A stretch of 64,000 nt of DNA from an uncultured bacterium (GTDB lineage Bacteria > Electryoneota > Tariuqbacteria > Tariuqbacterales > Tariuqbacteraceae), in assembly GCA_964421875.1 (NCBI GenBank), contig CAYQZD010000004.1, positions 4,082-68,081 on the forward strand. The letters are read 5' to 3'. Positions 1 to 47,443 of this stretch are shown one piece after another. A program made the translations under genes and the position numbers. Under the pieces are notes generated by a model. The model saw only the letters and a list, made by a program, of their open reading frames with translations, did not search any database and had not been told where the DNA came from. Position 1 is the first letter of the stretch, and the number at the start of each line of letters is the position of its first letter.

Positions 1-490
1 CGAACAATTGAGGGACGCGCGTGGTTTTAAACACCGCCATTGCGAAGGGAATCCAGGCGATGGGGCAGAGCGGCCGGAACATCTCCACCAAAGGATTGAC
101 CAGCCGGTGGATGATTTTAGAACTGCCCATCATCACACCCAGCGGCACGCAAATCACCACCGCTACCAGAAATCCGAACAACACCCTGACCAAAGAGACC
201 GCAATGTTCCAAGCCAGGCTCCCGGTGCCGATGAGTTCGCTGAAAGGGTGAATCAAGACACCTACTACCGCTGTCAAGCGCGGCAATAGCGCCGGATTGT
301 CCACCATACGGGCGATAATTTCCCATAGCAGGAGGAAAAGCGCGGGCAACGCCAGGCTCTGGAGGATTTTAACAAGGTTCCCGATTTCCAGTAGTTTCCC
401 GGCGCCGTTCACTCGGGCTTGATCCAAAGTGATCGGACAACAGCATTCCGGCGCTGGCGTAACCGCGCTATCTTCTTCTCTTAGCGACAT
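1..490 (-). CDS. ABC transporter permease (binding-protein-dependent inner membrane component), partial; C-terminus lies beyond the left edge
   Basis: Minus-strand frame reads MSLREEDSAVTPAPECCCPITLDQARVNGAGKLLEIGNLVKILQSLALPALFLLLWEIIARMVDNPALLPRLTAVVGVLIHPFSELIGTGSLAWNIAVSLVRVLFGFLVAVVICVPLGVMMGSSKIIHRLVNPLVEMFRPLCPIAWIPFAMAVF..., a typical TauC/SsuC-like permease N-terminus. ATG at 490-488 overlaps the stop of the upstream SBP gene. Not in the ORF table because it runs off the window. Confidence 0.6.
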   Translation of the reverse strand, partial: MSLREEDSAVTPAPECCCPITLDQARVNGAGKLLEIGNLVKILQSLALPALFLLLWEIIARMVDNPALLPRLTAVVGVLIHPFSELIGTGSLAWNIAVSLVRVLFGFLVAVVICVPLGVMMGSSKIIHRLVNPLVEMFRPLCPIAWIPFAMAVFKTTRVPQLF

Positions 491-1613: not shown

Positions 1614-2080
1614 AGAGACCTCTCAAAATTAGATGCACCAGGTTATTTAGGGAAACGCTATTTTTAAACCGCTAACCGGCTGAAAAAGCCGCGATAACAG
1701 GCTTTTGTGCGGATATGCTGAATCCTGGACGCACTAAGAGAGACCGCCCGCAAGCGAAGCTTGTAAGTTTGCAATAGGTTGAATGAAAAGTGGCGATGCG
1801 AATACGGGGGTTGAGGGGAATTCGAGGTTGGAGCCTTTGGCGAGGGTACTAAATCACCGTATAAGACAGGTGACACAACCAGCAAATCCACCGGACAACG
1901 CCCTTTTCGTGGTTTCGCCTTTCAACCAGCTACACTGGCTTAGCCGGGCGCGTCATGTGGATTTTAATAAAAACAAGCGCATATGCGTTCAATTGGTGTT
2001 TTGATTATACTAATTTACGAAATATATGTCTTTTTAGTATAAGATGCAATAAATTGTGCAACTTTTTTTTGGGAAGAAAT

Positions 2081-2139
2081 GATGGTTGGTAATCGGCAGT
2101 CGGCAGTCGGTGGTTGGTAGTCGGTAGTTGGTAGTTGGC
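2081..2139. repeat. tandem heptamer repeat (GGYRGTY x ~8: GATGGTT GGTAATC GGCAGTC GGCAGTC GGTGGTT GGTAGTC GGTAGTT GGTAGTT)
   Basis: Direct reading; strict 7-nt periodicity. Lies just 3' of the stop of minus-strand gene 2155-3477. Confidence 0.8.
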
Positions 2140-2154
2140 ATATAAGGTGGAATC

Positions 2155-3477
2155 TCATTCCACCGTTCTTGTCCGCAAATTCAGGAGGCCGGCGCAGTAT
2201 TTTAATTCTTCGGCAATATCGGCGAAGGCGCAGACCAAATGGTTGCCGAGCAGGTTTTCCCGCAGCCTTTTGCTGGAAGGGATATTTACACGGATTTGGG
2301 TGTGGCAGGTGGGCAGTCGTGGGGAGGAGACTGTCTCGCCGGGGCAAATGCAGATATCATTCAGGTCGTTGCCGATGCGGACGAGGGTAACGATTTCCTT
2401 TAGAGGCAGGGAGACCTGAAGCGAAATCCCCGCGCCGGTCTCGTGGTGAGGCTTAAAGCTATAATCCAGCTTCCTCGGACCCGCCCCGCAGGGAGCGGTG
2501 CAGTGCACTAAATCGAGGTAATCCCCATTGTGAATAATGGGATTCCCCATCCAGAGCAGGTTCCCTCCCAACGCTTTCACCAAAGACATCGTTACAGCGG
2601 CATCAACGTCGCCTTCGCAGGCGGCGATGTAGCGCTCCGAACGGTTCAACGCGCTAAGCGCCAAACATCCCGTAGTCCCCAACCGCGGTATAAGGTCGAA
2701 GCAGGCGAGTGCGAGCCCTTCCGCCTCATACTCCTCCAGCAGTTTCTCCAGCCCGTATAAGACTGCGCAGGCTTTGGTTACGGTTTGCGTGTCGATACTT
2801 TTATTTCCGGAGCCGCCCTCAATCCAGGAGCGGGCGCATCGCGCGGTTTCGGATTGGGGAGCCTCGGCGACTATATCGTAAAGCTCTTCCAAAGCGAGGG
2901 GAAGGATTTCCACGCCTAAGGCTTCTTTGAAACGCTCCGGCTCCCGGCAGCTATTGACCACCCAGGGTTCCGTGGGACCTATCTGCAGAATTCTGCTGTG
3001 ATTCAGGCGCTGAACAGATCGAAATGCTTTACTATAACAGCGCCATTCAACCTCGCTTCCTATCCAGAACACCTTCCGATGTCTCATCCTGAGATGCGCG
3101 TAGAAATCCGTCGAAGCGGGGTGGGCGTTGGCTGAGAGCAGCGCTCCGGCGGTTTCTTCGGGCAAGCCGATTTCCGGGAGGTAAGCGTTGAGCAAAGCTA
3201 TCGATTTGAAATTTTCCGACAGCCGAATCATCCAATTCTGCACTCCCCCGCTGAGCGGCAGGAAAACAGCGTGTTTAGCGCCGGACTGGGAACAGGCAGC
3301 TTCCATCTCATCGTCGGAATGAATTAGATGGAAACGGAGGTTCTCTCCATCTTCCCCCTCGATTATTGCAGAAAATGAGCGCTTAATAACCTCCAGCAAA
3401 CGATTCAATTTGCTTTCCTCGCCCCAGTATCGCGGGGAAGCGAAGGCAAATATATCAAGGGGATATGACGATGGCAT
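2155..3477 (-). CDS. sugar isomerase-like protein (tentatively L-fucose/L-arabinose isomerase family); function uncertain
   Basis: ORF 2155-3510. Preferred ATG at 3477 sits behind an AGGA RBS. About 440 aa with no signal peptide. Family assignment rests on weak recall of fucose-isomerase C-terminal-like motifs (LVHCTAPCGAGPRKLDY). Confidence 0.3.
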   Translation of the reverse strand: MPSSYPLDIFAFASPRYWGEESKLNRLLEVIKRSFSAIIEGEDGENLRFHLIHSDDEMEAACSQSGAKHAVFLPLSGGVQNWMIRLSENFKSIALLNAYLPEIGLPEETAGALLSANAHPASTDFYAHLRMRHRKVFWIGSEVEWRCYSKAFRSVQRLNHSRILQIGPTEPWVVNSCREPERFKEALGVEILPLALEELYDIVAEAPQSETARCARSWIEGGSGNKSIDTQTVTKACAVLYGLEKLLEEYEAEGLALACFDLIPRLGTTGCLALSALNRSERYIAACEGDVDAAVTMSLVKALGGNLLWMGNPIIHNGDYLDLVHCTAPCGAGPRKLDYSFKPHHETGAGISLQVSLPLKEIVTLVRIGNDLNDICICPGETVSSPRLPTCHTQIRVNIPSSKRLRENLLGNHLVCAFADIAEELKYCAGLLNLRTRTVE

Positions 3478-3497
3478 AGTTGTCCTGTATATAAGTT

Positions 3498-3527
3498 TGC
3501 AGGTTGGCAAGTTAGCAAGTTAGCATT
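3498..3527. repeat. tandem octamer repeat (GTTGGCAA GTTAGCAA GTTAGCAT)
   Basis: Direct reading, between genes 3477 and 3874. Confidence 0.6.
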
Positions 3528-3641
3528 AAATGCAGGGCGGGTCATTCAGATCCGCCATTTAAATGTTCCGGCAGGTCTTGCGCGCTGAAGGCGGGTGTGA
3601 ACTGCCAGTCTTCAAGTCTTCAGACCGTATGAATTTAGCTT

Positions 3642-3752
3642 TATGAAGTTATAAGCAGAATTGTCATTCCGGCGTAGCCGGAATCCCTCCGGAAAAGAAG
3701 GATTCTGGCTCGCTGCGCGGCCAGAATGACGCGTTTACTTCATATCGGTAAA
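3642..3752. repeat. MITE-like palindromic element, copy A (~110 bp: outer TATGAAGT...ACTTCATA inverted repeat; inner GTCATTCCGGCG-CAG/TAG-CCGGAATCC ... GGATTCTGGCTCGC..GCGGCCAGAATGAC double hairpin; tail CTTCATATCGGTAAAGTGT)
   Basis: Direct reading. Copies at 9069, 17947, 32155, 35150 and 63148 share 70-100% of this sequence. Confidence 0.8.
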
Positions 3753-3801
3753 GTGTCACGGCAAGTCAAAACATTTTATACAGGTGTACAAGCAAACACC
3801 C

Positions 3802-3860
3802 GGCGGAATAAGATTCCGCCCTACTATCTACCGACCGCCGACTACCAACTACCGACTGCC
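3802..3860. repeat. hairpin GGCGGAAT-aag-ATTCCGCC, then CTA, then tandem heptamers (CTACCGA CCGCCGA CTACCAA CTACCGA CTGCC), immediately 3' of the stop of minus-strand gene 3874-6186
   Basis: Direct reading. The same hairpin sequence recurs at 6282-6300. Confidence 0.8.
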
Positions 3861-3873
3861 TGTCTCCCGCCCT

Positions 3874-6186
3874 TCACTTCAATTCAAGTTCATCCCGCCA
3901 ATACCGGGCTTTGCCCACGCCATACTGGTCGGAACTGCCGTCGAAGGCGAGTCCGAACAGCGAGGGGGCTTGCTCGAAGATGACCTGACCGTTATAAACC
4001 GCTTTTGAAACGTTGACCACGGTGAATTTCAGCCGCTTCCCCGTCCTGACGGTGAAGTAAAAGTCGGCGTTGGTTTCCAAACCGCCGTAAACGATGCGGC
4101 CGGATTCGTAGGTGTATTTGGGGCGGCGGTAATCGCGTACTATGTCCATCCTGAGGTCGCTTTTGAGGCCCACTTTGATGATCTTACCGGAACATTCAAT
4201 TGTTAAAGCCAATCCCGCGTCAAGGGGCTGAGTTTCTAACACGCTAATGCGGTCGAGCCAGCGCGAAGGATTTTCATCCGCCGGATGGGGGATTAAAACC
4301 GTAATGAAACCTATATGCTGGCCGAGTTCGAAATGCTGGGCGGTATACTGGCAGATAGCGTATTCATCCTGATAGTAACGGCGCTCTGGTTCGACCGACT
4401 CGAAGCGGTAATGAGTCTGCGGGAAGTATATCAGTAAACTGTTATCAGTGTCAAGTCCGATGTTCCTCAAAGAATCGTATTGGGTGTCGTACCAATGGTC
4501 TCCTTGCGCGGTAATTTTCCGGGTGTGCCAGAGGTTGGCGGCGGTAAGATAACCTTCCCGGACAGCTTTCAGAATGTCGAAGACGACGAACATTTCGGGA
4601 TTCTTAATATAAACAATCACCCGGTCCCATTGATAGCCCATTTTGTCGTCGAGGAGGCGGGTGCGGGAGTAATCGAATTCCTCAAAGGTGAGGAAATCCA
4701 CTTTTTGGGTGCGGACCTGCCGGTAAGAGCCGGCGTTGCGCATAAATTCCAATACCGGCTGACCCGGAACCGCGGAATGTTCCTTGGTGTCTAAACGGTA
4801 TTCCCCTTCTTTCTGACCAAACCAGATTTTTTCAGGGCGCACACAGAGCCGGTTGTGGAAATAATCGGCGCGGTAAGCCCCGTAAGGCCCCGATGGCATA
4901 TAGTCGCGGTAACCCCCATCGTGGAGCAGGACAGAGCCTTTGTGCATCAGCAGGGCGATGGAATTTTCATCGGAATGGCCGTGTGTCATCTTCTCCTCTT
5001 CCACCGGAATGCCGTCCCGGAGGTAATCGCGGAAGAGCAGACCTCCGTCCCCCTCGTCCCGGTAGTTGAGCAGCATATAGGTCGCTTCACTATCCCAGCC
5101 ATTGCGGAAAACGATTTTCTTACCCTGCACATCCTCCATCACCTCCATGCTCAATTCCTCCGGCGCCTGGGGGATAATATCGTCCGCCGCCCAGTTGTAA
5201 CAGTCGAACAGGATATAAGCTAACCCGGTGCGCCGGACCTGGCTGAAGTCGATGAATTTATCGGCAATGACCGCCGCCGCCCATTTTAAACGGGCGTCGC
5301 GGTAATGCGCCGCAGCGGCTTCAAAGAAGGCGAGAAAGCGGTCCCAGTTGGCGCGCCAGACCGAGTCGCCGAAATCCGGTATCATCCCGTCGGGGCACAT
5401 CAGATAAAGGTAGTATTGCGCGTAGTAATACATTTCCGGAGTTCTGAATAATTCCCTCATCCGCTCTTTGACCTCGGCGTACCCCAGCAGGCTGTAAAGC
5501 CAGATAGCGTTGTAGAGGGAGGCGTCCTCGATTTCCCAATTGCCCCAGTTGTCGAAAGCCAGGGCGCGTTCATAAGCGCGCCAGTTAGGAGCGCGGGGAT
5601 GGTCAGGGAGGGCTTTCACCGCCCAGGCGAGGACTTCGGCGCGCAAGGCGGCGCGGTTCATTGCCCCCCATTCCTGGGACTGCAGGGTATAATCGATGCT
5701 GTGGGCGATGGTCTCTTCTATCTTTTTCCGCTGGGATTTGCTCAAGAGCCCGGATTCCTTCAAGACGCAGTAAGCGCGGATATAGCGCATCGCGGTAAAG
5801 AAATCGGGCAGGGCGGGAACGCCTTGCGTATAATCAGGGCGGAGGGCGGCGGCGTCCGGGGGGAATTCCCGGCGGTAACCGCCGTAGGTGAGCAGAACCT
5901 TTTCCGCGCGGCGGGCGTATTCCTGATTCGATTCCAGTTTATACAGTTCAGCGTAGATGGCAGCCATTTCCAGAAATCGGGATGGTGGGCGGTATCCCCA
6001 GATGGTGTAGGGATTGAATTTTTCGCGCCATGCCTCTTCCAGGGAATCGTAATGTGTCCAGACCCAGCCGGCGGCGGCGCGGGCGAATTCGAGGTATTCC
6101 GCGCGGGGAGTGGGCGCGGGATTTTCCGCTGTTGCGATGGATGATAGCAGCAGTATAATGATAATAATCATCAGTGTATTTCGCAT
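3874..6186 (-). CDS. secreted polysaccharide-lyase-like protein, tentatively heparinase II/III family
   Basis: 770 aa. N-terminal signal peptide (MRNTLMIIIIILLLSSIATA). A large alpha-helical N-terminal half is followed by a beta-rich C-terminal half containing an HGHSD motif. Size and architecture fit a Hepar_II_III-like lyase. Confidence 0.4.
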   Translation of the reverse strand: MRNTLMIIIIILLLSSIATAENPAPTPRAEYLEFARAAAGWVWTHYDSLEEAWREKFNPYTIWGYRPPSRFLEMAAIYAELYKLESNQEYARRAEKVLLTYGGYRREFPPDAAALRPDYTQGVPALPDFFTAMRYIRAYCVLKESGLLSKSQRKKIEETIAHSIDYTLQSQEWGAMNRAALRAEVLAWAVKALPDHPRAPNWRAYERALAFDNWGNWEIEDASLYNAIWLYSLLGYAEVKERMRELFRTPEMYYYAQYYLYLMCPDGMIPDFGDSVWRANWDRFLAFFEAAAAHYRDARLKWAAAVIADKFIDFSQVRRTGLAYILFDCYNWAADDIIPQAPEELSMEVMEDVQGKKIVFRNGWDSEATYMLLNYRDEGDGGLLFRDYLRDGIPVEEEKMTHGHSDENSIALLMHKGSVLLHDGGYRDYMPSGPYGAYRADYFHNRLCVRPEKIWFGQKEGEYRLDTKEHSAVPGQPVLEFMRNAGSYRQVRTQKVDFLTFEEFDYSRTRLLDDKMGYQWDRVIVYIKNPEMFVVFDILKAVREGYLTAANLWHTRKITAQGDHWYDTQYDSLRNIGLDTDNSLLIYFPQTHYRFESVEPERRYYQDEYAICQYTAQHFELGQHIGFITVLIPHPADENPSRWLDRISVLETQPLDAGLALTIECSGKIIKVGLKSDLRMDIVRDYRRPKYTYESGRIVYGGLETNADFYFTVRTGKRLKFTVVNVSKAVYNGQVIFEQAPSLFGLAFDGSSDQYGVGKARYWRDELELK

Positions 6187-6281
6187 TATATTCGGTTTCT
6201 CCGATTTAAATTCGATAAAGTCATCAAGTCAACAAGTCGGCAGTTCGACGAGTCCCCCGCTCGAAGACCACCCTCTTTTCG

Positions 6282-6366
6282 GCGGAATGAGATTCCGCCC
6301 TACAAGCCACCAAGCACCAAGCACCAAGCACCAAGCACCAAGCACCAAGCACCAAGCACCAAGCAC
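6282..6366. repeat. hairpin GGCGGAAT-gag-ATTCCGCC, then CTA, then (CAAGCAC/CCAAGCA) x 8 tandem heptamers, immediately 3' of the stop of minus-strand gene 6378-6824
   Basis: Direct reading; eight perfect copies of CACCAAG. Confidence 0.85.
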
Positions 6367-6377
6367 TATTCACCAGT

Positions 6378-6824
6378 TCACCGCTTCACCGCCACCATCA
6401 TAATTTCCACCAGAGCGTCGGCGGGGATACGGGACACTTCAAGCACGGCGCGAGCAGGATAATCCCCTTTGAAAAATTCGGTGTAGATGGTGTTGAATTC
6501 GGGATAGCGCTCCATATCGTTCACAAAAACCTGGCACTGGACCACGTCATTCAGGCTGAAGCCGGCGGTTTCGAGGACTGCTTGCTGGTTTTTCAGCGCC
6601 TGGCGGGCTTGAGCGGCGAAGCCTTCGGCCAGTTTGCCGGTGGCGGGGTCGAGGCCTATTTGTCCGGCGAGGTAGAGGGTGTTCCCCACCCTGACAGCCT
6701 GGGAATAGGGACCGATGGCGGCGGGCGCATTGGGCGATACGATGATTTCGCGGGATACGACCTCCCGCTCGTCGCAACTATAAATTAAAAGTGAGGCAAC
6801 AAATATGGGAATAAGTCTATTCAT
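6378..6824 (-). CDS. ridA: RidA/YjgF/TdcF family protein (reactive enamine/imine deaminase) with lipoprotein signal
   Basis: 148 aa. Lipobox LIYSC. Motifs AIGPYSQAV and YPARAVLEVSRIP are characteristic of RidA. Confidence 0.8.
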   Translation of the reverse strand: MNRLIPIFVASLLIYSCDEREVVSREIIVSPNAPAAIGPYSQAVRVGNTLYLAGQIGLDPATGKLAEGFAAQARQALKNQQAVLETAGFSLNDVVQCQVFVNDMERYPEFNTIYTEFFKGDYPARAVLEVSRIPADALVEIMMVAVKR

Positions 6825-7129
6825 ATAATAGTCCTCCTTAATTTTATAGATTTATTATAATGCCGGGTTTGAAAAAGCCAACCTACAGATGCGCAACAAA
6901 CCTAATGCAGCAAATTAGTTGTTTGCGCGCACGTATTTTAAATTATCACAATTATCAAAATAATCAAGAATGTAAATTAATTATCTACCTGCGATACTCA
7001 ACGATACAGCGGGAAGCTGTTTCATTCTTTCGCGGTAAAACTTGAAGATAAGGATATAATTTGTTATATTTTTCACCATCTTAACTATAAACAGAACACT
7101 TTGAGATATTCATAGACACAGGAAGCATT

Positions 7130-8737
7130 GTGAGCGACGAAAACACTCAAACAGCAGCGAAAGAGCCTAAGGGGAAACGCGTTTTTGGGCGGACTTTCTG
7201 GTGCCTCAACGGCATCGAAATGTGGGAACGGCTGGCGTATTTCGGGATGCGCAGCGTGGTTCCGGTTTACATCATGCAGGCGGACAATCCCGGAGGACTG
7301 CATTTCACAGCGGCCGATAAAGGGATAATCTACCTGTTCTGGTTTCTGTGTCAATCGGTTTTACCGATGTTCACCGGGGGGTATGCTGACAGGTACGGCT
7401 ACAAAAAAACTCTGTTCGTGTCGGTGACGATGAACATCATCGGCTACATAATGATGGCGAACCTGCGGACTTTTCCCGGTTTTTTCGCGGGAGTGCTGGT
7501 GCTGGCCTGCGGTACGGCATTATTCAAACCGAGCCTTCAGGGATCGCTGGCTCAGAACCTGACAAAGGCCAATTCCTCGGTCGGATGGGGAATATTTTAC
7601 TGGGTGGTGAACATTGGCGCGGCCATCGGACCGTTTTTAGCTGATGTGATATTGGTAAACGCTTATACTCACAATCCTGACGGATTCTTTTTCAAGATTT
7701 TTGGCGCGGTCCGTTCGCAGTCTTCCTGGCGTTCGCTGTTTACAGCATCGGCGGTGATAACCTCATTCAATTATCTGATGATGCTGACCTATAAGGACGT
7801 CCCATCGGGAGCGTCGAAGAAGGAAAATCCACTGCAGGTATTTGTCCTCACCATCAAGAATATCGTGGAACCGCGCTTGATCGCGTGGCTGCTGATTATG
7901 TCCTGCTTCTGGCTTATGATGTATCAGGTTTGGGATTTGCATCCCAATTTCATAGAGGATTGGATAGACAGTTCGGCGCTGGCGACTCATCTGCCCTGGA
8001 AAATGGAGACCGACCGCGGGGTGATGGTTCCTCAGCATATAATGCTCAATCTCAATGCGCTCTGGATAATCTGCTTCATGGTGCCGATATCCTGGATGGT
8101 CAGGCGGATGCGGGTATTGGAGTGTATGATATTCGGGATGGCGCTGGCGACAGCCGGGACTATAGTCAGCGGTTTCACCAGTGTGGGCTCGATTTTCCTT
8201 TTGGGGATAGTCTTCTTCTCCACCGGCGAGATGATGACCGGTCCTAAAAAGAACGAATACCTGGGATTGATAGCCCCTCCGGGGAAGAAAGGATTATTTT
8301 TAGGCTATGTGAACATCCCTGTGGGCATCGGAGGCGGATTCGGCGCCATGCTGGCGGGTTTGCTGTATGGACGCTACGGCGAGAAGGCGACTCTGGCGAT
8401 GAAATACATGGCTGAGAAGACGCAGTTCGGTTTGTCCAAAGGCTGGGACGGAAAAATATCTTCGCTGGAAAGCACATTGGGAGTAACGCGGTCCGGTGTG
8501 TTCGATGAAATGGGACAAATAACAGAGCCGGGAGCTTTCCATAAGCTGCTGGAGGTGTTAAGACTGGAGACCGCGAATCCGGATTTAAGCGCTGTAGAAG
8601 TTACGCGTCTGCTGTGGGACACATATAATCCGCAGTTTCACGTTTGGATTCCCTTCGCCGCCATCGGCATGATAGCCATCATTGCATTGGTGATATTCAG
8701 CCGGATGGCGCGGAAGTGGTCGGATATGGATGCGTGA
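7130..8737 (+). CDS. POT/PTR2 family proton-dependent oligopeptide transporter (MFS)
   Basis: 535 aa. GTG start with an AGGAAG RBS. N-terminal EMWERLAYFGMRS matches the POT ExxERFxYYG motif. Multiple TM segments. Confidence 0.7.
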   Translation: MSDENTQTAAKEPKGKRVFGRTFWCLNGIEMWERLAYFGMRSVVPVYIMQADNPGGLHFTAADKGIIYLFWFLCQSVLPMFTGGYADRYGYKKTLFVSVTMNIIGYIMMANLRTFPGFFAGVLVLACGTALFKPSLQGSLAQNLTKANSSVGWGIFYWVVNIGAAIGPFLADVILVNAYTHNPDGFFFKIFGAVRSQSSWRSLFTASAVITSFNYLMMLTYKDVPSGASKKENPLQVFVLTIKNIVEPRLIAWLLIMSCFWLMMYQVWDLHPNFIEDWIDSSALATHLPWKMETDRGVMVPQHIMLNLNALWIICFMVPISWMVRRMRVLECMIFGMALATAGTIVSGFTSVGSIFLLGIVFFSTGEMMTGPKKNEYLGLIAPPGKKGLFLGYVNIPVGIGGGFGAMLAGLLYGRYGEKATLAMKYMAEKTQFGLSKGWDGKISSLESTLGVTRSGVFDEMGQITEPGAFHKLLEVLRLETANPDLSAVEVTRLLWDTYNPQFHVWIPFAAIGMIAIIALVIFSRMARKWSDMDA

Positions 8738-8832
8738 TGATGGTGGTTAGTGGTTGGTGGTTGGTGGTTGGTGGTTGGTGGTTGGTGGTTGGTGAATGGT
8801 GATTGGTGGTTGGTGGATAGTGGATGGTGGTC
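8738..8832. repeat. (TGGTGGT)n-type tandem heptamer tract, ~13 units with variants (TAGTGGT, TGAATGG, TGATTGG, GGATAGT), starting at the stop codon of gene 7130-8737 and followed by a terminator hairpin
   Basis: Direct reading. Confidence 0.85.
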
Positions 8833-8882
8833 ATTGTTCAGAAGTTGATTGCTAATAATTATAGATGAGTGATAAATGTAAA

Positions 8883-8912
8883 GGCGGGAATCAATCCCGC
8901 CTTTTTTGTTTG
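8883..8912 (+). terminator. rho-independent terminator (GGCGGGAA-tcaa-TCCCGCC followed by TTTTTTGTTTG)
   Basis: Perfect 8-bp GC-rich stem followed by a T-run, downstream of the POT gene and its heptamer repeat tract. Confidence 0.7.
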
Positions 8913-9068
8913 TACTTCAGCAATCTGCGTGAATATAACTTGATTATTAAGCGAAAATACATATATTATCTGAAAATGTTGAGCGATACTAGGGAATAAT
9001 CTAAAACACGCCTCTATTTTTTCTAAAATAGGGAATATCACTATAGCCTTTACAAGCAATTACCTATA

Positions 9069-9140
9069 TCGTCATTCCGGCGCAGCCGGAATCCCTCCGG
9101 GAAAGAAGGATTCTGGCTCGCTTCGCGGCCAGAATGACGC
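9069..9140. repeat. MITE-like element copy B (core double hairpin only)
   Basis: GTCATTCCGGCGCAGCCGGAATCCCTCCGGGAAAGAAGGATTCTGGCTCGCTTCGCGGCCAGAATGACG. Confidence 0.8.
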
Positions 9141-9231
9141 TTGCGCATTGTATAGATTAAGTTATACCACATCTTGAAATTATATACGTTAACTCCATAA
9201 TATTAAACAAATTGGGGGGAGGAGATTTGAT

Positions 9232-11253
9232 ATGAAGTTTAATACTTATTTACGTTTACTTATTGTTATCGCTCTTTGCAGCGTCGCAGTACTGGTGACT
9301 TCCTGCGGGAAAAAGGAAGTGGCGCTAATCCCCCGCGATGTGATTTTCGGCAATCCGGAGAAGGTATCGCCCCGGCTTTCCCCGGACGGGACGATGCTGG
9401 CTTACGTCGCGCCCTACGAAGGGGTGCTGAATGTCTGGGTCAGGACCATCGGCGAGGAGGACGACCGGGCGGTCACCAAGGACGACAACCGCGGCGTCCG
9501 GCGCTATTTTTGGGCGGAGGACAATCTGCGCATCCTCTACCTGCAGGATGTGGGCGGCAACGAGAATTGGCGGCTTTACGGGATTCACCTGGAGACCGAT
9601 TCGGTTAAGGATTACACCCCGTTCGATGAGGTTCAGGTTCGGATAGTGGACCGCAACAAGCATTTCCCCAACGAACTCTTGATATCGATGAACAAGGAGA
9701 ATATCCAGTTTCACGATGTTTATCATTTGGATTTGACCAGCGGGGAATTGAAGATGACGGCTCGGAATCCGGGCAATTACGTGGGCTGGGTGACGGACGC
9801 CGAGTTCAAGGTTCGGGGAGCTTTAGCCGCCAACGCTGAAGGGGGAATGGAGCTGATGGTTCGGGATAACGAGGAATCGACCTGGGAGAAGAAAATCGTC
9901 TGGGATCAGGACAACAGCCTCACCAGCGGGCCGGTGTGTTTCACTTTAGACGGCAAATCGATGATACTCATCGACTCGCGCGAGGTGAATGCGGGGAGGC
10001 TTATCAAGTATGAAATCAAGACTGGCGCCATTAGAATCATCGCCGAGGACCCCACTTACGACGTCAGCGACGCGATGATACATCCCGACACCTACGAGGT
10101 GCAGGCGGTGGCTTTCACCAAGGAGCGTGAGGTGTGGACCGTTCTGGACAGCGCTATCAAGGCGGATTTCGAAGTCATTTCCAAGCTGGACCGGGGTGAT
10201 TACGGCGTTAGCAGCCGGGACAACGCTGACAAGACCTGGCTGGTCTATTTCCGCGCCGACAATGGGCCTATCGCCTATTACGCTTACGACCGCGAGAGCA
10301 AAGCGGGGAAATTCCTGTTCCACCACCGTTCGGAATTGAACAATTATCTATTAGCGCCGATGGAGCCGATTTCTTTCGAATCCCGCGACGGCTTCACCAT
10401 TCACGGTTACATCACTTATCCTCCGGGCAAGGGCCGCAAGAACCTCCCGCTGGTGCTGAATGTTCATGGAGGACCTTGGTACCGGGACACCTGGGGCTAC
10501 TATCCCGAAGCGCAGTGGCTGGCGAACCGGGGCTATTGCTGCCTACAGGTTAATTTCCGAGGATCCACCGGCTACGGTAAGGAATTTTTGAACGCGGGCA
10601 ACAAGGAATGGGGCGGTAAAATGCAGAACGACCTCACCGACGCGGTGGAATGGGCAGTAGCTCAAGGTATCGCCGATGCGGAGCAGGTGGCGATATACGG
10701 CGGCTCCTACGGAGGCTACGCCGCGCTTGTGGGAGCGACCTTTACGCCGGACTTATACTGCTGCGCGGTGGACATAGTGGGACCCTGCAACCTCATCACC
10801 TTCATTCAGACCATTCCGCCTTACTGGATGCCGCTGATGAGCGTTTTTAAGAAGCGTGTAGGGGATTTGGAGACAGAAGAGGAAATGCTGTGGGAACGTT
10901 CGCCGCTGTCCAAGGCGGACAATATCAAAATACCGATGCTGATTGCGCAGGGCGCTAACGACCCTCGGGTAAATCAGGCGGAATCGGAACAGATTGTGAA
11001 GGCAATGGCGGACAAAGGGCTCGATTACGAATACCTGTTGTTCCCGGATGAAGGGCACGGTTTCGCTAAACCCGACAACCGCCTGGCTTACTATGCGTCG
11101 GCGGAACAGTTCCTGGCTAAACACCTGGGCGGCCGCTATGAAGAAGCGGGGCCTGAAGTTCAGAAAAAACTGGACGAGGTGAGGAGCGAACCTGCGGAGA
11201 CAGAAGAAGCAGAAGCCGAGGAAGAGACAGCAGAGGTTCCGGAAGAGGAATAG
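9232..11253 (+). CDS. S9 family serine peptidase (prolyl oligopeptidase/dipeptidyl aminopeptidase-like) lipoprotein
   Basis: 673 aa. Lipobox VTSCG. N-terminal beta-propeller-like region, C-terminal alpha/beta hydrolase with the GGSYGG nucleophile motif and DEGHGF. Strong RBS (GGGGGAGGAG). Confidence 0.85.
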   Translation: MKFNTYLRLLIVIALCSVAVLVTSCGKKEVALIPRDVIFGNPEKVSPRLSPDGTMLAYVAPYEGVLNVWVRTIGEEDDRAVTKDDNRGVRRYFWAEDNLRILYLQDVGGNENWRLYGIHLETDSVKDYTPFDEVQVRIVDRNKHFPNELLISMNKENIQFHDVYHLDLTSGELKMTARNPGNYVGWVTDAEFKVRGALAANAEGGMELMVRDNEESTWEKKIVWDQDNSLTSGPVCFTLDGKSMILIDSREVNAGRLIKYEIKTGAIRIIAEDPTYDVSDAMIHPDTYEVQAVAFTKEREVWTVLDSAIKADFEVISKLDRGDYGVSSRDNADKTWLVYFRADNGPIAYYAYDRESKAGKFLFHHRSELNNYLLAPMEPISFESRDGFTIHGYITYPPGKGRKNLPLVLNVHGGPWYRDTWGYYPEAQWLANRGYCCLQVNFRGSTGYGKEFLNAGNKEWGGKMQNDLTDAVEWAVAQGIADAEQVAIYGGSYGGYAALVGATFTPDLYCCAVDIVGPCNLITFIQTIPPYWMPLMSVFKKRVGDLETEEEMLWERSPLSKADNIKIPMLIAQGANDPRVNQAESEQIVKAMADKGLDYEYLLFPDEGHGFAKPDNRLAYYASAEQFLAKHLGGRYEEAGPEVQKKLDEVRSEPAETEEAEAEEETAEVPEEE

Positions 11254-11331
11254 CGCCGAACAGGCAATTAATTGTAATACAGTAATTTACCATTAGTTTG
11301 CTGTGATTGCAGGAAAATAGAGAGAGTTAAA

Positions 11332-11375
11332 GGGCGTCTCTGCGGAACTGAAGTTTTAGCGGGACGCCTTTTTTA
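11332..11375 (+). terminator. putative terminator hairpin (GGGCGTC ... GACGCC followed by TTTTTT)
   Basis: GC stem with a long loop followed by a T-run, downstream of the S9 peptidase. Confidence 0.4.
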
Positions 11376-11433
11376 GGAAGTGTCAAGTAACAAGTGTGAA
11401 AGTAACAAGTATATATAGCAGAAAAGGCAGACA

Positions 11434-12798
11434 TTGACAGACAACGAAGGGGACAAGAAAGACCTCAGCCTTAAAGAATCGCTGAGTATTTTATTCAGGG
11501 CTTCCAAGGGATTCTGGCTGGTAAATATGATAAACTTCGGGGACGGGATAGCGTATTTCGGGATACTGACACTGCTGACCCGTTTCTTGGGAACACGACT
11601 GGATTTGCCGGACACTACTACGGGCCTCAGCGTGTCGATGTATACGGGGATGGTGACGTTGTTTATGTTCGGCGGGGGATTTGTATCGGACAAGCTGGGA
11701 GTGCGGCGGGCTTTGGGCTGGTCGCTGTTCGTGATACTGCTGGGGCGGATACTGCTGGCGGGGGCGCCGATGGGATTGGAGGGGGGATTCGCCAAGTATT
11801 CGGCTTGGCTGGGATTATTGCTGGCGGCTTTGGGGACGGGAGTGCTGCAGCCGGCTCTATACGCCGGAGTCAAGGAGTACACCGATTCGCGCACCGCCAC
11901 CATCGGATATGGTCTGCTCTACTCTATTATGAACTTAGGGATTGTGGCGGAAACCTTTGTCTCGCCTTTCATCCGCACCGGAGGCACCTTTCTCAACCTG
12001 GGATTTACTGAAATCATCGGGCTGGGCTGGGGGATTGACGGGGTGTATTGGACGATGGTATCGGTGACTGGGCTGATGCTGTTCCTGCATCTTTCACTGT
12101 TCACACGGCGGGTGGAGGCTACCGACCGGCAGGTGGTTGAGGAGCCGCAGGTGGATAAACCTCAGTTTACGTTGAAGCAGCGGATAATGGAGCTGCCGTT
12201 TTTGGACCCGCATTTCATGTTTTTCATCTTCATTCTTCTGCCGGTCAGAACTATTTTCGCGCACGATTTCCTGACGATGCCGGACTATATTTTCCGGGAG
12301 TTTCCGGCGGAGGTGGGGGCGAAATTCGAATGGATACACGGTCTCAATCCGTTGATAATCGTGATATTCGTCCCGACCATCGCGGCTGCTACGCGCAAGG
12401 TGAAGATAATCAATATGATGATTATCGGGACCTTAATCACGGCGACCATACCGTTCATTTTAACGCCGGGACCGAGGCTTTGGACGCTGCTCACTTATGT
12501 TATCATCTACTCGCTGGGGGAAGCGGTTTGGTCATCGCGTTTCCTGGAGTATGTGGCGGATATGGCGCCCACGGGGAGGGTGGGGGCTTATATGGGGCTG
12601 GCGGGGATACCGTGGTTTATGGCGAAGTTCACCACGGGCTTTTATTCGGGATCGATGCTGGAGAAGTTCGTTCCGGAGAACGGTCCTCACGACAGCGGGA
12701 CGATGTGGGGGATATACGCCTGCATTGCGTTGATAAGCCCGATATGCCTGATTTTAATGAGAAAGTGGCTGGAAAAGGGGCGGCATACCAGTGGGTGA
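11434..12798 (+). CDS. MFS transporter, POT-like (degenerate PTR2 signature)
   Basis: 454 aa with about 12 TM helices. GGGFVSDKLGVRRALGWSLFVILLG resembles the PTR2_1 signature. The annotated start is TTG at 11434; a downstream ATG (MINFGDG) would truncate TM1. Confidence 0.6.
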   Translation: MTDNEGDKKDLSLKESLSILFRASKGFWLVNMINFGDGIAYFGILTLLTRFLGTRLDLPDTTTGLSVSMYTGMVTLFMFGGGFVSDKLGVRRALGWSLFVILLGRILLAGAPMGLEGGFAKYSAWLGLLLAALGTGVLQPALYAGVKEYTDSRTATIGYGLLYSIMNLGIVAETFVSPFIRTGGTFLNLGFTEIIGLGWGIDGVYWTMVSVTGLMLFLHLSLFTRRVEATDRQVVEEPQVDKPQFTLKQRIMELPFLDPHFMFFIFILLPVRTIFAHDFLTMPDYIFREFPAEVGAKFEWIHGLNPLIIVIFVPTIAAATRKVKIINMMIIGTLITATIPFILTPGPRLWTLLTYVIIYSLGEAVWSSRFLEYVADMAPTGRVGAYMGLAGIPWFMAKFTTGFYSGSMLEKFVPENGPHDSGTMWGIYACIALISPICLILMRKWLEKGRHTSG

Positions 12799-18144: not shown

Positions 18145-19875
18145 GTGCTGTTTTTGACCGAGATGTGGGAGCGGTTCAGTTTTTACTGTATGCTCTCCAT
18201 CCTGGCGCTCTATATGAGCGAGACCTTCGTGCGGGGGGGATTAGGTTTCGACACCTTCAGGACGGGCCAGGTTTACGGGCTCTATGTGGGGCTGGTTTAT
18301 TTCACGCCGCTGATAGGGGGGATGATTGCAGACCGGCTGTTAGGCATCCGCAAGACCATCATCGTAGGCGGGCTGTTTATGATGGCGGGGCATTTCCTGC
18401 TGGGGCTGATATTGTTCCCCGCTTCGGGGACGCCGCTGTTCCATATGGGTGATTTGAAGCATCCGGAAGCGTTTTTTGTCAAATTAGAGCGGTCTGACAC
18501 GCCGATGGCGGAATATATCAGATCCAACATCAGCGGCGACACTCGGGTATTGTTGGAGGATTATTCCGACTTTGCGGGAGACGCCGCCACCGCCGCTATG
18601 ACCCTGGACTATCAACAACCGATTTTCGACGCATTGTATCCCGCTTTTTTAAATGAAATGAACCGCATTATTCAAACGGAATTGGTTTACGACGAGGAAC
18701 GCTTTGAGGGAGTGGCTTTAAGCCCGGAAATCCGGGCGCAGCTTGAAGCGCCGCCGGAGGGTATGGAACTGGCAAAGCTGAATCGCGAGCTATTGATGGC
18801 GGCTTATCCGGGGGAGATTAAGGGGAAACCGTTCCATTTCGGTTTCAGTCCGCTTATGTTCTTCTTCGCAGCGCTGGGGTGCCTGATTATCGGGAACGGG
18901 TGTTTCAAGCCCAACATTTCCACGATGCTGGGGAATCTCTACCGGGATTTGCCGGAGAAGAAGGACGATGCTTACAATATCTTCTATATGGGTATCAACT
19001 TAGGGGCGTTCTTTTCACCCCTTGTGGCGGCTTCGCTGCGAAGTCTGCACCCCATACACGGCTGGCACTACGCGTTCGGCGCGGCGGGGATAGGGATGAT
19101 AATTTCACTGGTAACATTCACGCTATTCCAGAAGCATGTGCGCGCTGGTGAGAATGTCAGCGGGGGGAACATCGACCAGGCTGGCACCGGCAAAGAAGTA
19201 GAACTCACGCCGATACAGGCTCGGAAGCGGGTGATGGCGCTGTTGGTGATATTCGGGGTGGTGATTTTCTTCTGGATGGGATTCCACCAGAACGGTCTGA
19301 CCTTGAATTTCTGGGCGCGGGACAACACGCGCACCACGCTCAGCCCCGAACTTTTCCAGTCGGTGAATCCGCTGTTCATCCTACTGTTCACCCCGCTGGT
19401 GGTGGGCTTTTGGAACATCCTGCGGCGGCGGAAACTGGAACCTTCAACCGCTTCGAAGCTGGGAGTGGGGATGATACTCACCGCCGGGAGTTTCGCCATT
19501 ATGGCCTTCGCGGCTTTGTCAGGAGGGAATATCGGGCGGGTGAGCGTGTCCTGGCTCATCAGCGCTTACGCAGTTATTACGTTGGGTGAGTTGTGCTTAT
19601 CGCCGATGGGGCTTTCGCTGGTGTCGAAGCTGGCGCCTTGGAAGATACGGGGGATGATGATGGGGGGCTGGTTCGCGGCGACCGCGATTGGTAATTATCT
19701 TTCAGGTTTCCTGGGCAGTTTCTGGGACACGCTGATACACAGCACTTTCTTTACGATATTGGTGGGGACTTCGTTGTTTGCGGCGGCGCTGCTGTTCGTG
19801 TTCCTGAAGTTTTTAAATCCGATAATCAAGGAGGCTGAGGAGCAGGCGCGATCGGCGGCGGAAGAAAGCGCGTGA
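18145..19875 (+). CDS. POT/PTR2 family di-/tripeptide:proton symporter
   Basis: TEMWERFSFYCMLSILALYM is the canonical ExxERFxYY motif. 576 aa with many TM helices. The annotated start is GTG; the true start could be a non-ATG codon further upstream (in-frame to 18076, AAGGAG RBS at 18078). Confidence 0.8.
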   Translation: MLFLTEMWERFSFYCMLSILALYMSETFVRGGLGFDTFRTGQVYGLYVGLVYFTPLIGGMIADRLLGIRKTIIVGGLFMMAGHFLLGLILFPASGTPLFHMGDLKHPEAFFVKLERSDTPMAEYIRSNISGDTRVLLEDYSDFAGDAATAAMTLDYQQPIFDALYPAFLNEMNRIIQTELVYDEERFEGVALSPEIRAQLEAPPEGMELAKLNRELLMAAYPGEIKGKPFHFGFSPLMFFFAALGCLIIGNGCFKPNISTMLGNLYRDLPEKKDDAYNIFYMGINLGAFFSPLVAASLRSLHPIHGWHYAFGAAGIGMIISLVTFTLFQKHVRAGENVSGGNIDQAGTGKEVELTPIQARKRVMALLVIFGVVIFFWMGFHQNGLTLNFWARDNTRTTLSPELFQSVNPLFILLFTPLVVGFWNILRRRKLEPSTASKLGVGMILTAGSFAIMAFAALSGGNIGRVSVSWLISAYAVITLGELCLSPMGLSLVSKLAPWKIRGMMMGGWFAATAIGNYLSGFLGSFWDTLIHSTFFTILVGTSLFAAALLFVFLKFLNPIIKEAEEQARSAAEESA

Positions 19876-20275
19876 TAGAATATGGTTGGTTCATCCGGAA
19901 AATGGGTAGTTCAAATAACTCAAAGATAAACAGGTAGATGATGTATTTTTAAAATGAACTGATATGATTTGCATTTTATATTTATTTTACATATATTTTT
20001 TCATACTTTATCTGTTGAATACTAGTACTTAAAATTCAATAACATAGCTACATGTTAGAGTATGTTAGTTGTATAAACAGAAAAATGTACCCGGGCCAAA
20101 TCTGTTAATAATTTCATCAATTCCATGTGTTTAGCTAAATTACGAAGATTACCTTTTTCCTTGATGAAATAATTTATAATCTTGTGTCAAAACGAAAAAT
20201 ATTGGAACATCCCATGCATATAGTTGCAACCATTTCCGAATTGTCTAAGTAAAATAAATTGGGAGGTATACCGCC

Positions 20276-20896
20276 ATGGCTGATTCTGGAAAAATAATTG
20301 AAGCATTAATCCAAATTCTAGCATTGGCCGGAATTGGTTTATTTGGTAAAGCTCTGTGCCATTTTTGTACTTATATGAAGGATCTGAATAGACTAAAAAA
20401 ATTGATCATAGAGAGTAGGCCAATTCCACCAGGTCTTTGGCAAAGAATGAGGAAGCGTGAAGGATTTAGACGAGATGAACATATAACAGGCCATTATCTG
20501 ATAATAGCTTCAATGATTTACCTGTTAAAACTAGTCGTTGGAACTAATGAGTTGGGATTAAACTTCTTCACAATATCGATCGATAATAATAATACAAGAA
20601 CTCTGATAATAACAATCATCATACTTCTTGGCTTAATCCTTGGTTATATTGTTGTTCGTTTAGGTAACATCGATGCACATGGTACAAAAGAAAAAATAGT
20701 ATCAAAAAAGCAATTTATTAGTAATAAGGATGTTGCGGAAAGTAAGAAAACCTATAAGCCAATATCTAAATCTAATAAAATCAGCTTCATTCCATTCTCA
20801 ATCTTTCATGTAGTAAACACAATTGGGGTCGCTTCACTTAGCGTATCTTATTATATAGCTGATAATTTATTAAAGTTTTCAATACCCGGAGGTTGA
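20276..20896 (+). CDS. hypothetical 4-TM membrane protein (AT-rich island 1)
   Basis: GGGAGG RBS. Four predicted TM helices. No recognisable family. Low-GC codon usage. Confidence 0.5.
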   Translation: MADSGKIIEALIQILALAGIGLFGKALCHFCTYMKDLNRLKKLIIESRPIPPGLWQRMRKREGFRRDEHITGHYLIIASMIYLLKLVVGTNELGLNFFTISIDNNNTRTLIITIIILLGLILGYIVVRLGNIDAHGTKEKIVSKKQFISNKDVAESKKTYKPISKSNKISFIPFSIFHVVNTIGVASLSVSYYIADNLLKFSIPGG

Positions 20897-20897
20897 A

Positions 20898-21200
20898 ATG
20901 TTGACTCCCCTGTTATTTTTTGCCTTGCTTGGCATAATAATTGTTGTTTTCAGTATTCTTATAGACTTAGCTTTCAAAAAGTCTTTTGCAGCTAGGAAAA
21001 GGTTCCTTGTAGGAATACTACGAAAAAAAGCCTCAAAACTCACACCAGACAAGTATGCACTTACCTATTTTGCGCCAAAAATTGACAAGAGTGATTCTCC
21101 AGAAGACGGAATAGTAAAAAGTATTTCAAAAGATAATTTAGGGTTAGTGCAAGAGGAATTCATAAAGATCTTTATAAAAAACCTGAAGAGTAAAAACTAG
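20898..21200 (+). CDS. hypothetical small single-pass membrane protein (AT-rich island 1)
   Basis: GGAGG RBS, one nt after the previous stop. N-terminal TM helix, then a Lys-rich tail. Confidence 0.45.
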   Translation: MLTPLLFFALLGIIIVVFSILIDLAFKKSFAARKRFLVGILRKKASKLTPDKYALTYFAPKIDKSDSPEDGIVKSISKDNLGLVQEEFIKIFIKNLKSKN

Positions 21201-21229
21201 GTTTATTAAAAAAAGCAAGAGTACATACT

Positions 21230-21979
21230 ATGTCTGATTTAAGTAATCCCCGTTATCAATTTTTATCTGGAACATATGATTTAATAATATCAGAATCTTT
21301 AATTCATCGTGTCGATATGTTTCCATTTCCTAAGTTTCACGAAAATCAAATATCTGAAGAGGAGTTAGGGGAACTAGCAGATAGATTATCTGGAACGATT
21401 GAATATTCCAGTAATTTGCCTGATGATATATACAGTTCAATCACACATGTGGATGGCCAAGCCAACATTGTGATTAATATAAATCATGGACCAGCAGTAA
21501 TCTGGTTTTTATTAGGTCATGAAATCGGACATCTTTGGCTGCACCCCAGACTAGATCTATTTGATGTGGTAGAGTTTAGCGATATTAAATCCAGGGCATT
21601 AATACCTGAAATTAAAAAGAATGGGGAGAATTGGGATTACATACCATATAAGGTCTTAGAAGATGAAGCTAACTATTTCTCAATATGCACTTTTGTCCCC
21701 TTAAGTAAAATGGTTGAATGGTATCGTAAAGGTTCATTATGCACATCTTTTCTATCGCAGTGGGTTTTAAAATGTCTAATGGATTCGGGGAAAATTTCTA
21801 AGGAACATGATGATGGTTCTGAACGAACACCATCTAGAAGACTTGTCCAAAGGATGCGCGGCATAATGCGCAGTTTTAAGTTACGCCTTGAAATAAATAA
21901 ATTGATATTTGCGGATAGTAATGAAATGCCTAAATGGGACGATTCATTTCTTGAAGACAATTTTGTAGGTAGGGAATGA
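21230..21979 (+). CDS. HExxH zinc-metallopeptidase-domain protein, ImmA/IrrE (DUF955)-like
   Basis: LLGHEIGHLWLH fits the ImmA/IrrE HEIGH signature. No HTH partner seen. AT-rich. Confidence 0.45.
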   Translation: MSDLSNPRYQFLSGTYDLIISESLIHRVDMFPFPKFHENQISEEELGELADRLSGTIEYSSNLPDDIYSSITHVDGQANIVININHGPAVIWFLLGHEIGHLWLHPRLDLFDVVEFSDIKSRALIPEIKKNGENWDYIPYKVLEDEANYFSICTFVPLSKMVEWYRKGSLCTSFLSQWVLKCLMDSGKISKEHDDGSERTPSRRLVQRMRGIMRSFKLRLEINKLIFADSNEMPKWDDSFLEDNFVGRE

Positions 21980-22012
21980 TTATACAAATCTATTATTAGA
22001 ATAAGGTTTAGA

Positions 22013-22048
22013 AAATCCCCCATTGATTATGGAGGATTTTTTATTTTA
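22013..22048 (+). terminator. terminator hairpin (AAAATCCCCCA ... TGGAGGATTTT followed by a T-run) ending AT-rich island 1
   Basis: Near-perfect inverted repeat followed by TTTTTTATTTT. Confidence 0.5.
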
Positions 22049-22096
22049 AACAGACTTCGGAGTGGATTTTTCTTCTTCCCCTATTGTGATTGGTAA

Positions 22097-22498
22097 TCAA
22101 TCCACCTTCACCATACCCAAATCGACAGGCCCACAGAATGAGGATTCGGCGAGGGAGATTTTAGGGAGCGCCGGAGTGAAATTCTGCGGTATAACGGAGG
22201 GGGGGCTTTTCTGCGTTATGTTCGAAGCCGCGAATCCGGCGAGGAATCCTGCGACGAAGACCGCGGCAACTTTCAATATAATCAGCCTGGGGCTTGTTTT
22301 CGATCCCGGCAGGGGTATGGGAGGAGCGATACTCTTCATTTCCGCGCCGCCGATGGTTTCAAGGTCGGATTCAATCCGCGCCAGTTTTTCCCGGCACTGA
22401 GCGCATTCGGTTAGATGCCTGTCGATTTCCATCCCTTCTTCAACTTCACATAATTTCAACGCTGATCGAATCAGGGCGCTATCGTCAAGGTGCTTCAT
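22097..22498 (-). CDS. anti-sigma factor, zf-HC2 type, single-pass membrane protein
   Basis: HLTECAQCREKL putative Zn-finger (HxxxCxxC), then a TM helix (LIILKVAAVFVAGFLAGFAA). Start overlaps the ECF sigma stop. Confidence 0.6.
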   Translation of the reverse strand: MKHLDDSALIRSALKLCEVEEGMEIDRHLTECAQCREKLARIESDLETIGGAEMKSIAPPIPLPGSKTSPRLIILKVAAVFVAGFLAGFAASNITQKSPPSVIPQNFTPALPKISLAESSFCGPVDLGMVKVD

Positions 22499-47121: not shown

Positions 47122-47356
47122 TTTACACCTCGAGTTATTTAGGATTACTGTATTTCAGTTGTTGGCGATTGCGAAATACAGGGCTTTATCGAGGCTCAAC
47201 ACAGTATCAAATGCACCCTATCGTTTATATAATACAAAGAGAGGTTCAAAGAGTCAAGCGATGATTCGATAATATATCATTCTTTTGATTTTTCGCGTGC
47301 TATCGAAAAACGCAGATTATTGCGTGAGGCGCGGGGGAATAAGATACCGCTGTTTT

Positions 47357-47392
47357 GAATATTAAAAACGCCGGCTCGGAAACGAGCCGACG
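47357..47392 (-). terminator. rho-independent terminator ending the AT-rich three-gene island (GCCGGCTCG-gaaa-CGAGCCGAC; minus strand followed by TTTTTAATATT)
   Basis: GC-rich hairpin whose minus-strand reading is followed by a T-run, 50 nt downstream of the gene 47444 stop. Confidence 0.6.
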
Positions 47393-47443
47393 GTGGTGTT
47401 TATATAACAAAACTATAGTATGATCAATTTCTAATAAACATAG

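Follow-up and report, generated by a model that had tools for sequence, protein, structure and literature searches.

Within the 64,000-nucleotide stretch of contig CAYQZD010000004.1 analysed here (the window), which comes from an uncultured bacterium, positions 19876-22060 of the plus strand form an AT-rich island that carries three genes, which we call A, B and C. A and B encode co-translated small inner-membrane proteins, and C, judged by its profile match, is a genuine member of the Peptidase_M78 family (ImmA/IrrE, DUF955, COG2856) with an IrrE/PprI-like predicted fold. Peptidase and membrane proteins stay linked in independent loci that have diverged widely, and A-B-C is therefore a functional module and not a chance juxtaposition. 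We infer, with a probability of roughly 0.4, that the island is an acquired, self-contained three-gene operon of the toxin-antitoxin (TA) or abortive-infection type, which would be functionally analogous to RosmerTA, in which a zinc peptidase of the ImmA type serves as antitoxin to diverse toxins that are not helix-turn-helix (HTH) proteins (bioRxiv 10.1101/2022.05.11.491447).

Gene content and origin of the AT-rich island

The assignment of C rests on several independent comparisons. Against Pfam PF06114 the protein scored 26.8 bits (gathering score 22, E = 4.8e-6, residues 76-158), and the C proteins of two of the related loci described below also exceeded the cut-off (27.7 bits for L003 and 33.9 bits for L004). 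Both the HExxH motif and the downstream E-x-x-A...F-x-P helix that provides the third ligand are intact, and in an alignment of five family members H97, E98, H101, E144, E146, A147, F155 and P157 are invariant. When an AlphaFold2 (AF2) model of C (predicted local distance difference test (pLDDT) 72, predicted TM-score (pTM) 0.70) was compared with the PDB using Foldseek, the top matches were the M. tuberculosis XRE-M78 regulator 6cyj, PprI (8slm/8sln) and IrrE (3dti), with probabilities of 0.96-1.0 and TM-scores of only 0.31-0.39; matches in BFVD were headed by phage IrrE-like models. The sole PDB sequence match was CapP (7t5t, E = 0.38). Among PADLOC models the best match was capP (E = 1.4e-6), over the peptidase part only (model positions 24-124 of 242), and RmrA models matched with E values of 2e-5 and 1.8e-4, residues 65-112 of C aligning with model positions 181-229 of 380. 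The phrog_87 metallo-protease matched over the catalytic core only (E = 1.3e-6), and the NCBIfam spr1629 repressor/antitoxin model gave 19 bits against a cut-off of 335. After the peptidase domain only ~85 residues follow, which are helical in the AF2 model, and neither an HTH_3/XRE nor a GAF domain was found in C.

The two genes ahead of C are tightly coupled to one another. Each is preceded by a GGAGG ribosome-binding site, that of B sitting within the 3' end of A, and B starts 1 nt past the stop codon of A. Kyte-Doolittle analysis places strong transmembrane (TM) segments in A at residues ~10-28, 70-88 and 109-127, with a weaker C-terminal hydrophobic helix at ~169-195 that is also helical in the AF2 model, a low-confidence arrangement of four long helices (pLDDT 50) whose quality did not permit a fold search. 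The protein also contains two very basic loops, at residues 31-72 and 128-168. The A proteins have in common a conserved RRDE-x3-G-H/Y-Y motif ahead of TM2 (RRDE-x3-G-H-Y in the window) and a few charged positions. In B the same method finds a single strong TM segment (residues 4-22); the protein has 18 Lys and Arg residues in 100 and is laid out as an N-terminal TM segment, a basic juxtamembrane stretch, an acidic linker and a C-terminal amphipathic helix. The positive-inside rule would place both the B tail and the basic A loops on the cytoplasmic side, within reach of C. Profile searches with A and B in Pfam, NCBIfam, PADLOC, PHROG and the PDB were negative or insignificant, the match of B to a holin PHROG (E = 0.24) being of the latter kind, and no HTH family of Pfam matched either protein.

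The operon is flanked by a gene-free leader and a terminator. The leader, which is presumably promoter or regulatory DNA, contains no open reading frame (ORF) longer than 45 aa and no Rfam match; its RNA structure is not in excess (fold z-score 0.17), and promoter-like sites within it do not exceed chance. The hairpin that closes the operon, at 22009-22043 and followed by a U-run, has a predicted folding free energy of -14.4 kcal/mol (z-score -2.96), and none of 200 shuffles folded as well. No ORF longer than 45 aa beyond A, B and C was found in the island, and no HTH gene lies in or beside it. An earlier note on this DNA, made from the letters alone, had described an AT-rich block of ~2.2 kb between a POT transporter gene and an anti-sigma gene, with an AT-rich leader of ~400 bp, a 206-aa protein of ~4 TM segments, a Lys-rich single-pass protein of 100 aa at 1-nt spacing, a 249-aa ImmA/IrrE-like HEIGH peptidase that has these membrane proteins and not the usual HTH repressor as partners, and a hairpin terminator; this layout was borne out throughout, with the hairpin very near the 22013-22048 given there.

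Composition sets the island apart from its surroundings very strongly. Its GC content (GC) of 0.327 compares with 0.488 over the whole window and ~0.53 in the flanks, and along the sequence GC falls from 0.55-0.57 to 0.31-0.36 across ~19860 to 22060. GC at third codon positions (GC3) is 0.26 in A, 0.34 in B and 0.28 in C, compared with 0.59-0.70 in five native neighbours (the POT, anti-sigma, sigma, TMEM260-like and YceI genes). The borders are sharp and match the stop codons of the POT gene (19875) and of the anti-sigma gene (22097), so that the gap between these two convergent genes is filled exactly by the island. Its coding content is not a by-product of low GC: its three longest stop-free stretches add up to 590 aa, whereas 1000 shuffles of the island gave at most 309 aa. 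In a second sample, contigs identical to the window locus were present, island included. This composition, together with the sporadic distribution of the families and the unrelated flanks at other loci, strongly suggests that the island is horizontally acquired foreign DNA, as the earlier note had supposed; a DUF955 match was obtained for C, and the three genes were not found as core genes of native composition.

A second AT-rich stretch, at 47-49 kb, shares with the island the lowest GC of any 2-kb stretch in the window. It spans ~47150-49330 on the minus strand and has the same composition as the island (GC 0.33-0.38, GC3 0.26-0.30). Of its three ORFs, one encodes a member of the TIGR04255 family (E = 3e-47) and the other two have no Pfam or PADLOC family. 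Lying between native genes, the stretch is possibly another acquired cassette. The closest relatives of the window POT/PTR2 transporter among GTDB species representatives, to which the genome of the window does not itself belong, are 70-75% identical in amino acid sequence, the top one coming from a metagenome-assembled genome of candidate division LCP-89, in the FCB group. The transporter itself carries an insert of ~137 aa after residue 92 (residues ~93-229; window 18421-18831) that looks soluble, with many acidic and helix-favouring residues, and that is missing from all 22 closest relatives examined, whose alignments skip from query residue 92 to ~230. The coordinates of these features, and the make-up of the related cassettes, are collected in Table 1.

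Table 1. Features of the window and of related loci. Identities are to the window proteins; aa, amino acids.
Feature	Sequence	Position	Strand	Description
Leader	Window	19876-20275	+	400 nt, non-coding, AT-rich; GC down to 0.15-0.27
Gene A	Window	20276-20896	+	206 aa, ~4 TM membrane protein, orphan family
Gene B	Window	20898-21200	+	100 aa, single-pass membrane protein
Gene C	Window	21230-21979	+	249 aa, LLGHEIGHLWLH zinc-binding motif (HEIGH), cytoplasmic Peptidase_M78 (ImmA/IrrE-type)
Terminator	Window	22009-22049	+	Intrinsic-terminator-like hairpin with U-run, closes the operon
POT/PTR2 transporter gene	Window	18145-19875	+	Upstream neighbour
zf-HC2-type anti-sigma gene	Window	22097-22498	-	Convergent downstream neighbour; encodes a single-pass membrane protein
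Second-island ORFs	Window	48455-49315, 47865-48458, 47444-47884	-	
Cassette	L002			A 176 aa, 24% identical (pairwise E = 2e-9); B 103 aa; C 210 aa, 39% identical
Cassette	L003			A truncated by contig end; B 99 aa; C 219 aa
Cassette	L092 (fragments L093, L006)			A 190 aa; B 116 aa; C 206 aa
Cassette	L004 (81-kb contig)			A-like 141 aa, 4 TM; B-like 119 aa, 1 TM; C 211 aa, 26% identical
A-B pair region	L090	6700-8908		

The cassette in other loci

The A-B-C order was seen again in four further metagenomic loci (L002, L003, L004 and L092), with C proteins 26-43% identical, which supports the tie between the peptidase and the membrane proteins that had earlier been suspected from the window only. 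A and/or B are detectably homologous in three of the four, and in the fourth, L004, C alone is. The families are extremely rare: a search of 5.8 billion proteins returned, for the C family, the query and two others (39% identity each) plus a weak CapP-like match, and the A family consisted of the query alone in a word-indexed search and of the query and one other protein when 1.84 billion representatives were scanned exhaustively with phmmer. L003, L004 and L005 (below) were found by a metagenome scan. The flanks are not conserved among the cassette loci, and no HTH gene was found at any of them.

In each of the five other loci with an A or A-like gene (L002, L003, L004, L090 and L092), the gene downstream of it matches B in size, position and architecture, and the spacer between the two is 1-3 nt in all six loci when the window is included, which indicates coupled expression or synthesis. 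The only relatives found for window A, those of L002, P0006/L090 and L092, are 23-27% identical to it. The B proteins are fast-evolving; their tails are nevertheless collectively more alike than shuffled sequences (z-score 6.4; 0 of 300 shuffles) and have in common a strand-like P-x-D/E-aromatic segment, the acidic linker and the C-terminal amphipathic helix. In window B, whose tail comprises residues ~26-100, the conserved aromatic strand lies at ~50-57 (PDKYALTY). The L004 A-like protein was also considered as a remote homologue of family A, and this was rejected after two negative hhalign comparisons.

Two loci separate the parts of the cassette. L090, a contig of 198 kb, encodes an A-B pair without any peptidase within 16.5 kb, and the same element is present in L094 and L095, so that it is represented in three samples; the A proteins of L090 and of L092, a locus that does contain C, are 38% identical (E = 9e-32). 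The occurrence of the pair without C suggests that A-B is the core of the system and C an add-on regulator. With its small one-directional orphan genes, a single-stranded DNA-binding protein (SSB), a protein kinase and two PHROG hits, the L090 contig looks like that of a phage or mobile genetic element (MGE), although this identity is putative. At L005, a related peptidase (29% identity) is preceded not by a membrane protein but by a soluble ORF of 64 aa (104-298) that resembles the cytoplasmic tails of B (z-scores 2.3-3.7 against three of them), a likeness that points to the tail of B as the element that goes with C.

Further observations concern the DNA around these genes. A gene-free leader precedes A also in L092 (~430 nt) and in L090 (~1.3 kb, AT-rich, with GC 0.30 at 7001-7500), and in L002 the 407 nt ahead of A contain short ORFs only, none of them called as genes; no sequence or motif was found in common between the leaders of the window and of the other loci. 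Just downstream of the L090 A-B pair, at 9258-10599, three consecutive ORFs of 136-172 aa have by eye the look of tandem paralogues, with a pattern of the form ...W F...LL..AL.N..L..E... in common. The L004 cassette lies within a lower-GC block of ~11.5 kb (1-11500; 0.50-0.60 versus 0.62-0.68 beyond) together with glycosyltransferases and a SEC-C-motif protein, and an orphan ORF of 105 aa (8660-8977) is located directly 3' of its peptidase gene.

In L006 (342-962) the zinc-binding motif reads HQLGH, owing to a single G-to-C change (CAA versus GAA), whereas the near-identical L092 (1449-2069) and L093 (608-1228) have HELGH. A family with catalytically dead peptidases was rejected on this ground, L006 being a single-nucleotide strain variant of an HELGH cassette; the change points either to a catalytically dead enzyme in that strain or to a sequencing error. 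The nearest out-group relatives of C belong to canonical pairs of an HTH protein and a peptidase. One, in L007 (4366-8519), is an HTH_3 and M78 (CapH/CapP-like) pair that is divergent from an adjoining BilB/BilD/ThiF-type ubiquitin-like (Bil) system, after which come a resolvase, two integrases and IS66 genes; the other, in L091 from IMG/VR, is a prophage XRE-ImmA-integrase module.

Proposed function and alternative explanations

Under the operon reading, A and B would form a membrane effector complex that depolarises or permeabilises the membrane when active, and C would be its post-translational controller. In the version we prefer, phage infection, DNA damage or some other trigger would cause C to cut the cytoplasmic tail of B, and A would thereby be switched on; B would act as a membrane-anchored inhibitor or adaptor. 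This preference follows from the habit of the peptidase family, the usual substrate being the product of the adjacent gene. Alternatively, in the manner of RosmerTA, C could be an antitoxin that binds or processes A-B. In both versions the target of the peptidase would be a membrane protein and not an HTH repressor. The specific proposal that the ImmA/IrrE switch acts here at the membrane level, with cleavage of the B tail directly freeing the polytopic effector A, post-translationally and not transcriptionally, is possible, but we judge the odds to be clearly against it. If true, such a membrane switch, built with two orphan protein families, would be a previously undescribed use of ImmA/IrrE peptidases.

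A number of results weigh against an acquired TA or abortive-infection operon. To look for an empty site, we took the 80 best POT-transporter loci among GTDB species representatives and compared the flanking genes of the 22 closest; none of the 22 shares another flanking gene, so that no empty site was found, and an exact look-up of the anti-sigma protein returned only island-bearing contigs. The earlier note had suggested seeking integrase or prophage remnants near the island, and these did not appear: there is no integrase and no nearby tRNA, and the only flanking direct repeat, a single 10-mer, is at chance level. Nor does a defence island surround the cassette, the neighbours being a transporter, YceI, a cytochrome-c-like protein and an extracytoplasmic function (ECF) sigma/anti-sigma pair. 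The PADLOC comparison, likewise proposed in that note, gave capP and RmrA matches for C that are weak and confined to the catalytic core, and none for A or B, for which no toxin, holin or defence model was matched. Since C has neither the HTH that is common in RmrA nor the GAF domain of CapP and IrrE, no trigger-sensing domain is identifiable in it. On the side of the relatives, the similarity of window B to other B proteins is not individually significant, homology of the A-like and B-like proteins of L004 to families A and B was not detected, and the statistics rest on ~8 loci, given the rarity of the family. When IMG/VR was scanned with alignments of C and of A, only the canonical XRE-ImmA prophage pair came up, and tblastn searches of 50,697 phage records and 72,556 plasmids yielded no A relative and no cassette-type C relative.

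These last searches also bear on a different account of the island, in which A and B would be a phage- or MGE-derived membrane pair serving superinfection exclusion or holin/antiholin-like lysis timing, C would be an optional processing protease, and the island itself a stranded fragment or moron. The foreign AT-rich composition would be expected of such a fragment, the sole A-B pair on a long contig sits in the 198-kb stretch of orphan genes with SSB, kinase and two PHROG hits, the fold of C resembles many phage-encoded IrrE-like proteins, and B has a very weak match to a holin PHROG. However, L090 is only putatively viral, the holin match lacks significance, the island is not flanked by other phage genes, none was identified among the scanned neighbours in L004, and neither an A relative nor a cassette-type C relative was found in the viral, phage and plasmid collections; we therefore regard this account as unlikely. 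A role outside genetic conflict, with C as a membrane-recruited housekeeping or quality-control protease, or as a protease that matures A or B, within a small accessory membrane complex, for example for transport or stress response, would fit the ordinary envelope and transport neighbours in the window and in L004 (POT, ECF sigma, glycosyltransferases) and the lack of a defence-model match for A and B. It seems quite improbable to us, because so extremely sparse and patchy a distribution, combined with foreign composition, is what mobile conflict genes typically show and housekeeping genes do not, and because the flanks differ from locus to locus.

Two further explanations detach C from its membrane partners. 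C could be what is left of an ImmA/ImmR-type mobile-element switch after loss of the HTH repressor, with A and B as unrelated upstream cargo, and such an origin would be in keeping with the normal pairing of the M78 family with an XRE HTH protein and with the HTH/XRE-peptidase pairs of the nearest out-groups, beside the Bil system in L007 and beside an integrase in L091. But C retains intact and conserved catalytic motifs, and the A-B-C order is kept in at least four independent loci whose peptidases are 26-43% identical and none of which has an HTH gene; this conserved synteny largely refutes the remnant explanation, and very little weight can be given to it. Alternatively, C might target the native anti-sigma factor, so that the island would be an accessory regulator for the ECF sigma system. 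The anti-sigma gene is indeed directly downstream and convergent, and its product is a single-pass membrane protein, yet that same convergent orientation, with a terminator in between, argues against a common unit, the island is unlike the sigma and anti-sigma genes in composition, and no sigma or anti-sigma genes lie beside the cassette in L004 or L090. We consider this the most remote of the explanations, with hardly any likelihood of being correct.

The interest of the operon reading lies in the peptidase family, as ImmA, IrrE and CapP peptidases are familiar mainly for cutting HTH repressors once DNA damage has activated them. With RosmerTA it became clear that an ImmA-type domain can also partner toxins. 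Here, a minimal peptidase that lacks both HTH and GAF domains is coupled strictly to a pair of small membrane proteins, and the cassette could offer a clean system for asking whether an ImmA-type peptidase cleaves or binds a partner that is not a repressor. Two orphan membrane-protein families would join the candidate membrane effectors, and an uncultured lineage of the FCB group (best match LCP-89) would be seen to acquire small AT-rich cassettes between convergent genes. The extreme rarity of the families limits the general importance of these points. The earlier note had also called the module different from known ones: membrane partners do replace the HTH protein, but RosmerTA already offers examples of non-HTH partners, among them a toxin that depolarises the membrane, and the pairing is less unprecedented than was held.

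Comparison with known systems

For ImmA, IrrE and CapP alike, the substrate is the product of the neighbouring gene, which is cleaved upon a DNA-damage or single-stranded DNA signal, and IrrE and CapP have a C-terminal GAF sensor domain with a groove that binds single-stranded DNA (bioRxiv 10.64898/2026.05.16.725639). The cassette resembles the ImmA-ImmR, IrrE-DdrO and CapP-CapH systems in the M78 catalytic domain of C and in having a likely substrate gene just upstream in the same operon. It differs from them in that its loci carry membrane partners and no HTH repressor, and C, unlike IrrE and CapP, ends in ~85 helical residues and not in a GAF domain. As both the HTH partner and the GAF domain were tested for and are absent, the cassette, judged by its gene and domain content, is not a member of this class.

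A different kind of resemblance is to membrane abortive-infection modules. RexA/RexB of phage lambda and KwaA/KwaB of Kiwa are two-component modules, each consisting of a small polytopic membrane protein and a cytoplasmic partner; unlike the cassette, they are not known to include an M78 peptidase or a second, single-pass protein. The parallel lies in the combination of a ~4-TM protein with a cytoplasmic partner on foreign DNA, and it does not extend to sequence, A and B having no sequence or model similarity to these proteins (no PADLOC or Pfam match).

The closest parallel in design is RosmerTA, although the differences are considerable. In both cases an ImmA-type zinc peptidase lies in one operon with orphan non-HTH partners, the toxicity of A or B being predicted by this analogy; the peptidase gene closes the operon behind those of its partners, as it frequently does in RosmerTA; and the RmrA models of PADLOC match C and its relatives. 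The partners here are membrane proteins, and a known toxin of the system, RmrT of Gordonia phage Kita, is membrane-localised, depolarises or permeabilises the membrane, and is a pore-forming anti-phage protein (PMC10440598). RosmerTA, however, is a two-gene system, whereas the window, L002, L003, L004 and L092 each have three genes. C has 249 aa and no HTH, as opposed to RmrA models of 357-400 aa that typically combine an N-terminal HTH with the peptidase, and the alignment of these models to C covers only ~50 residues around HExxH; A and B had no match in the phage collection searched or among PADLOC models. With three genes, a C protein without HTH and an RmrA match of ~50 residues, the cassette thus falls outside the strict description of RosmerTA, but by analogy it would share its logic.

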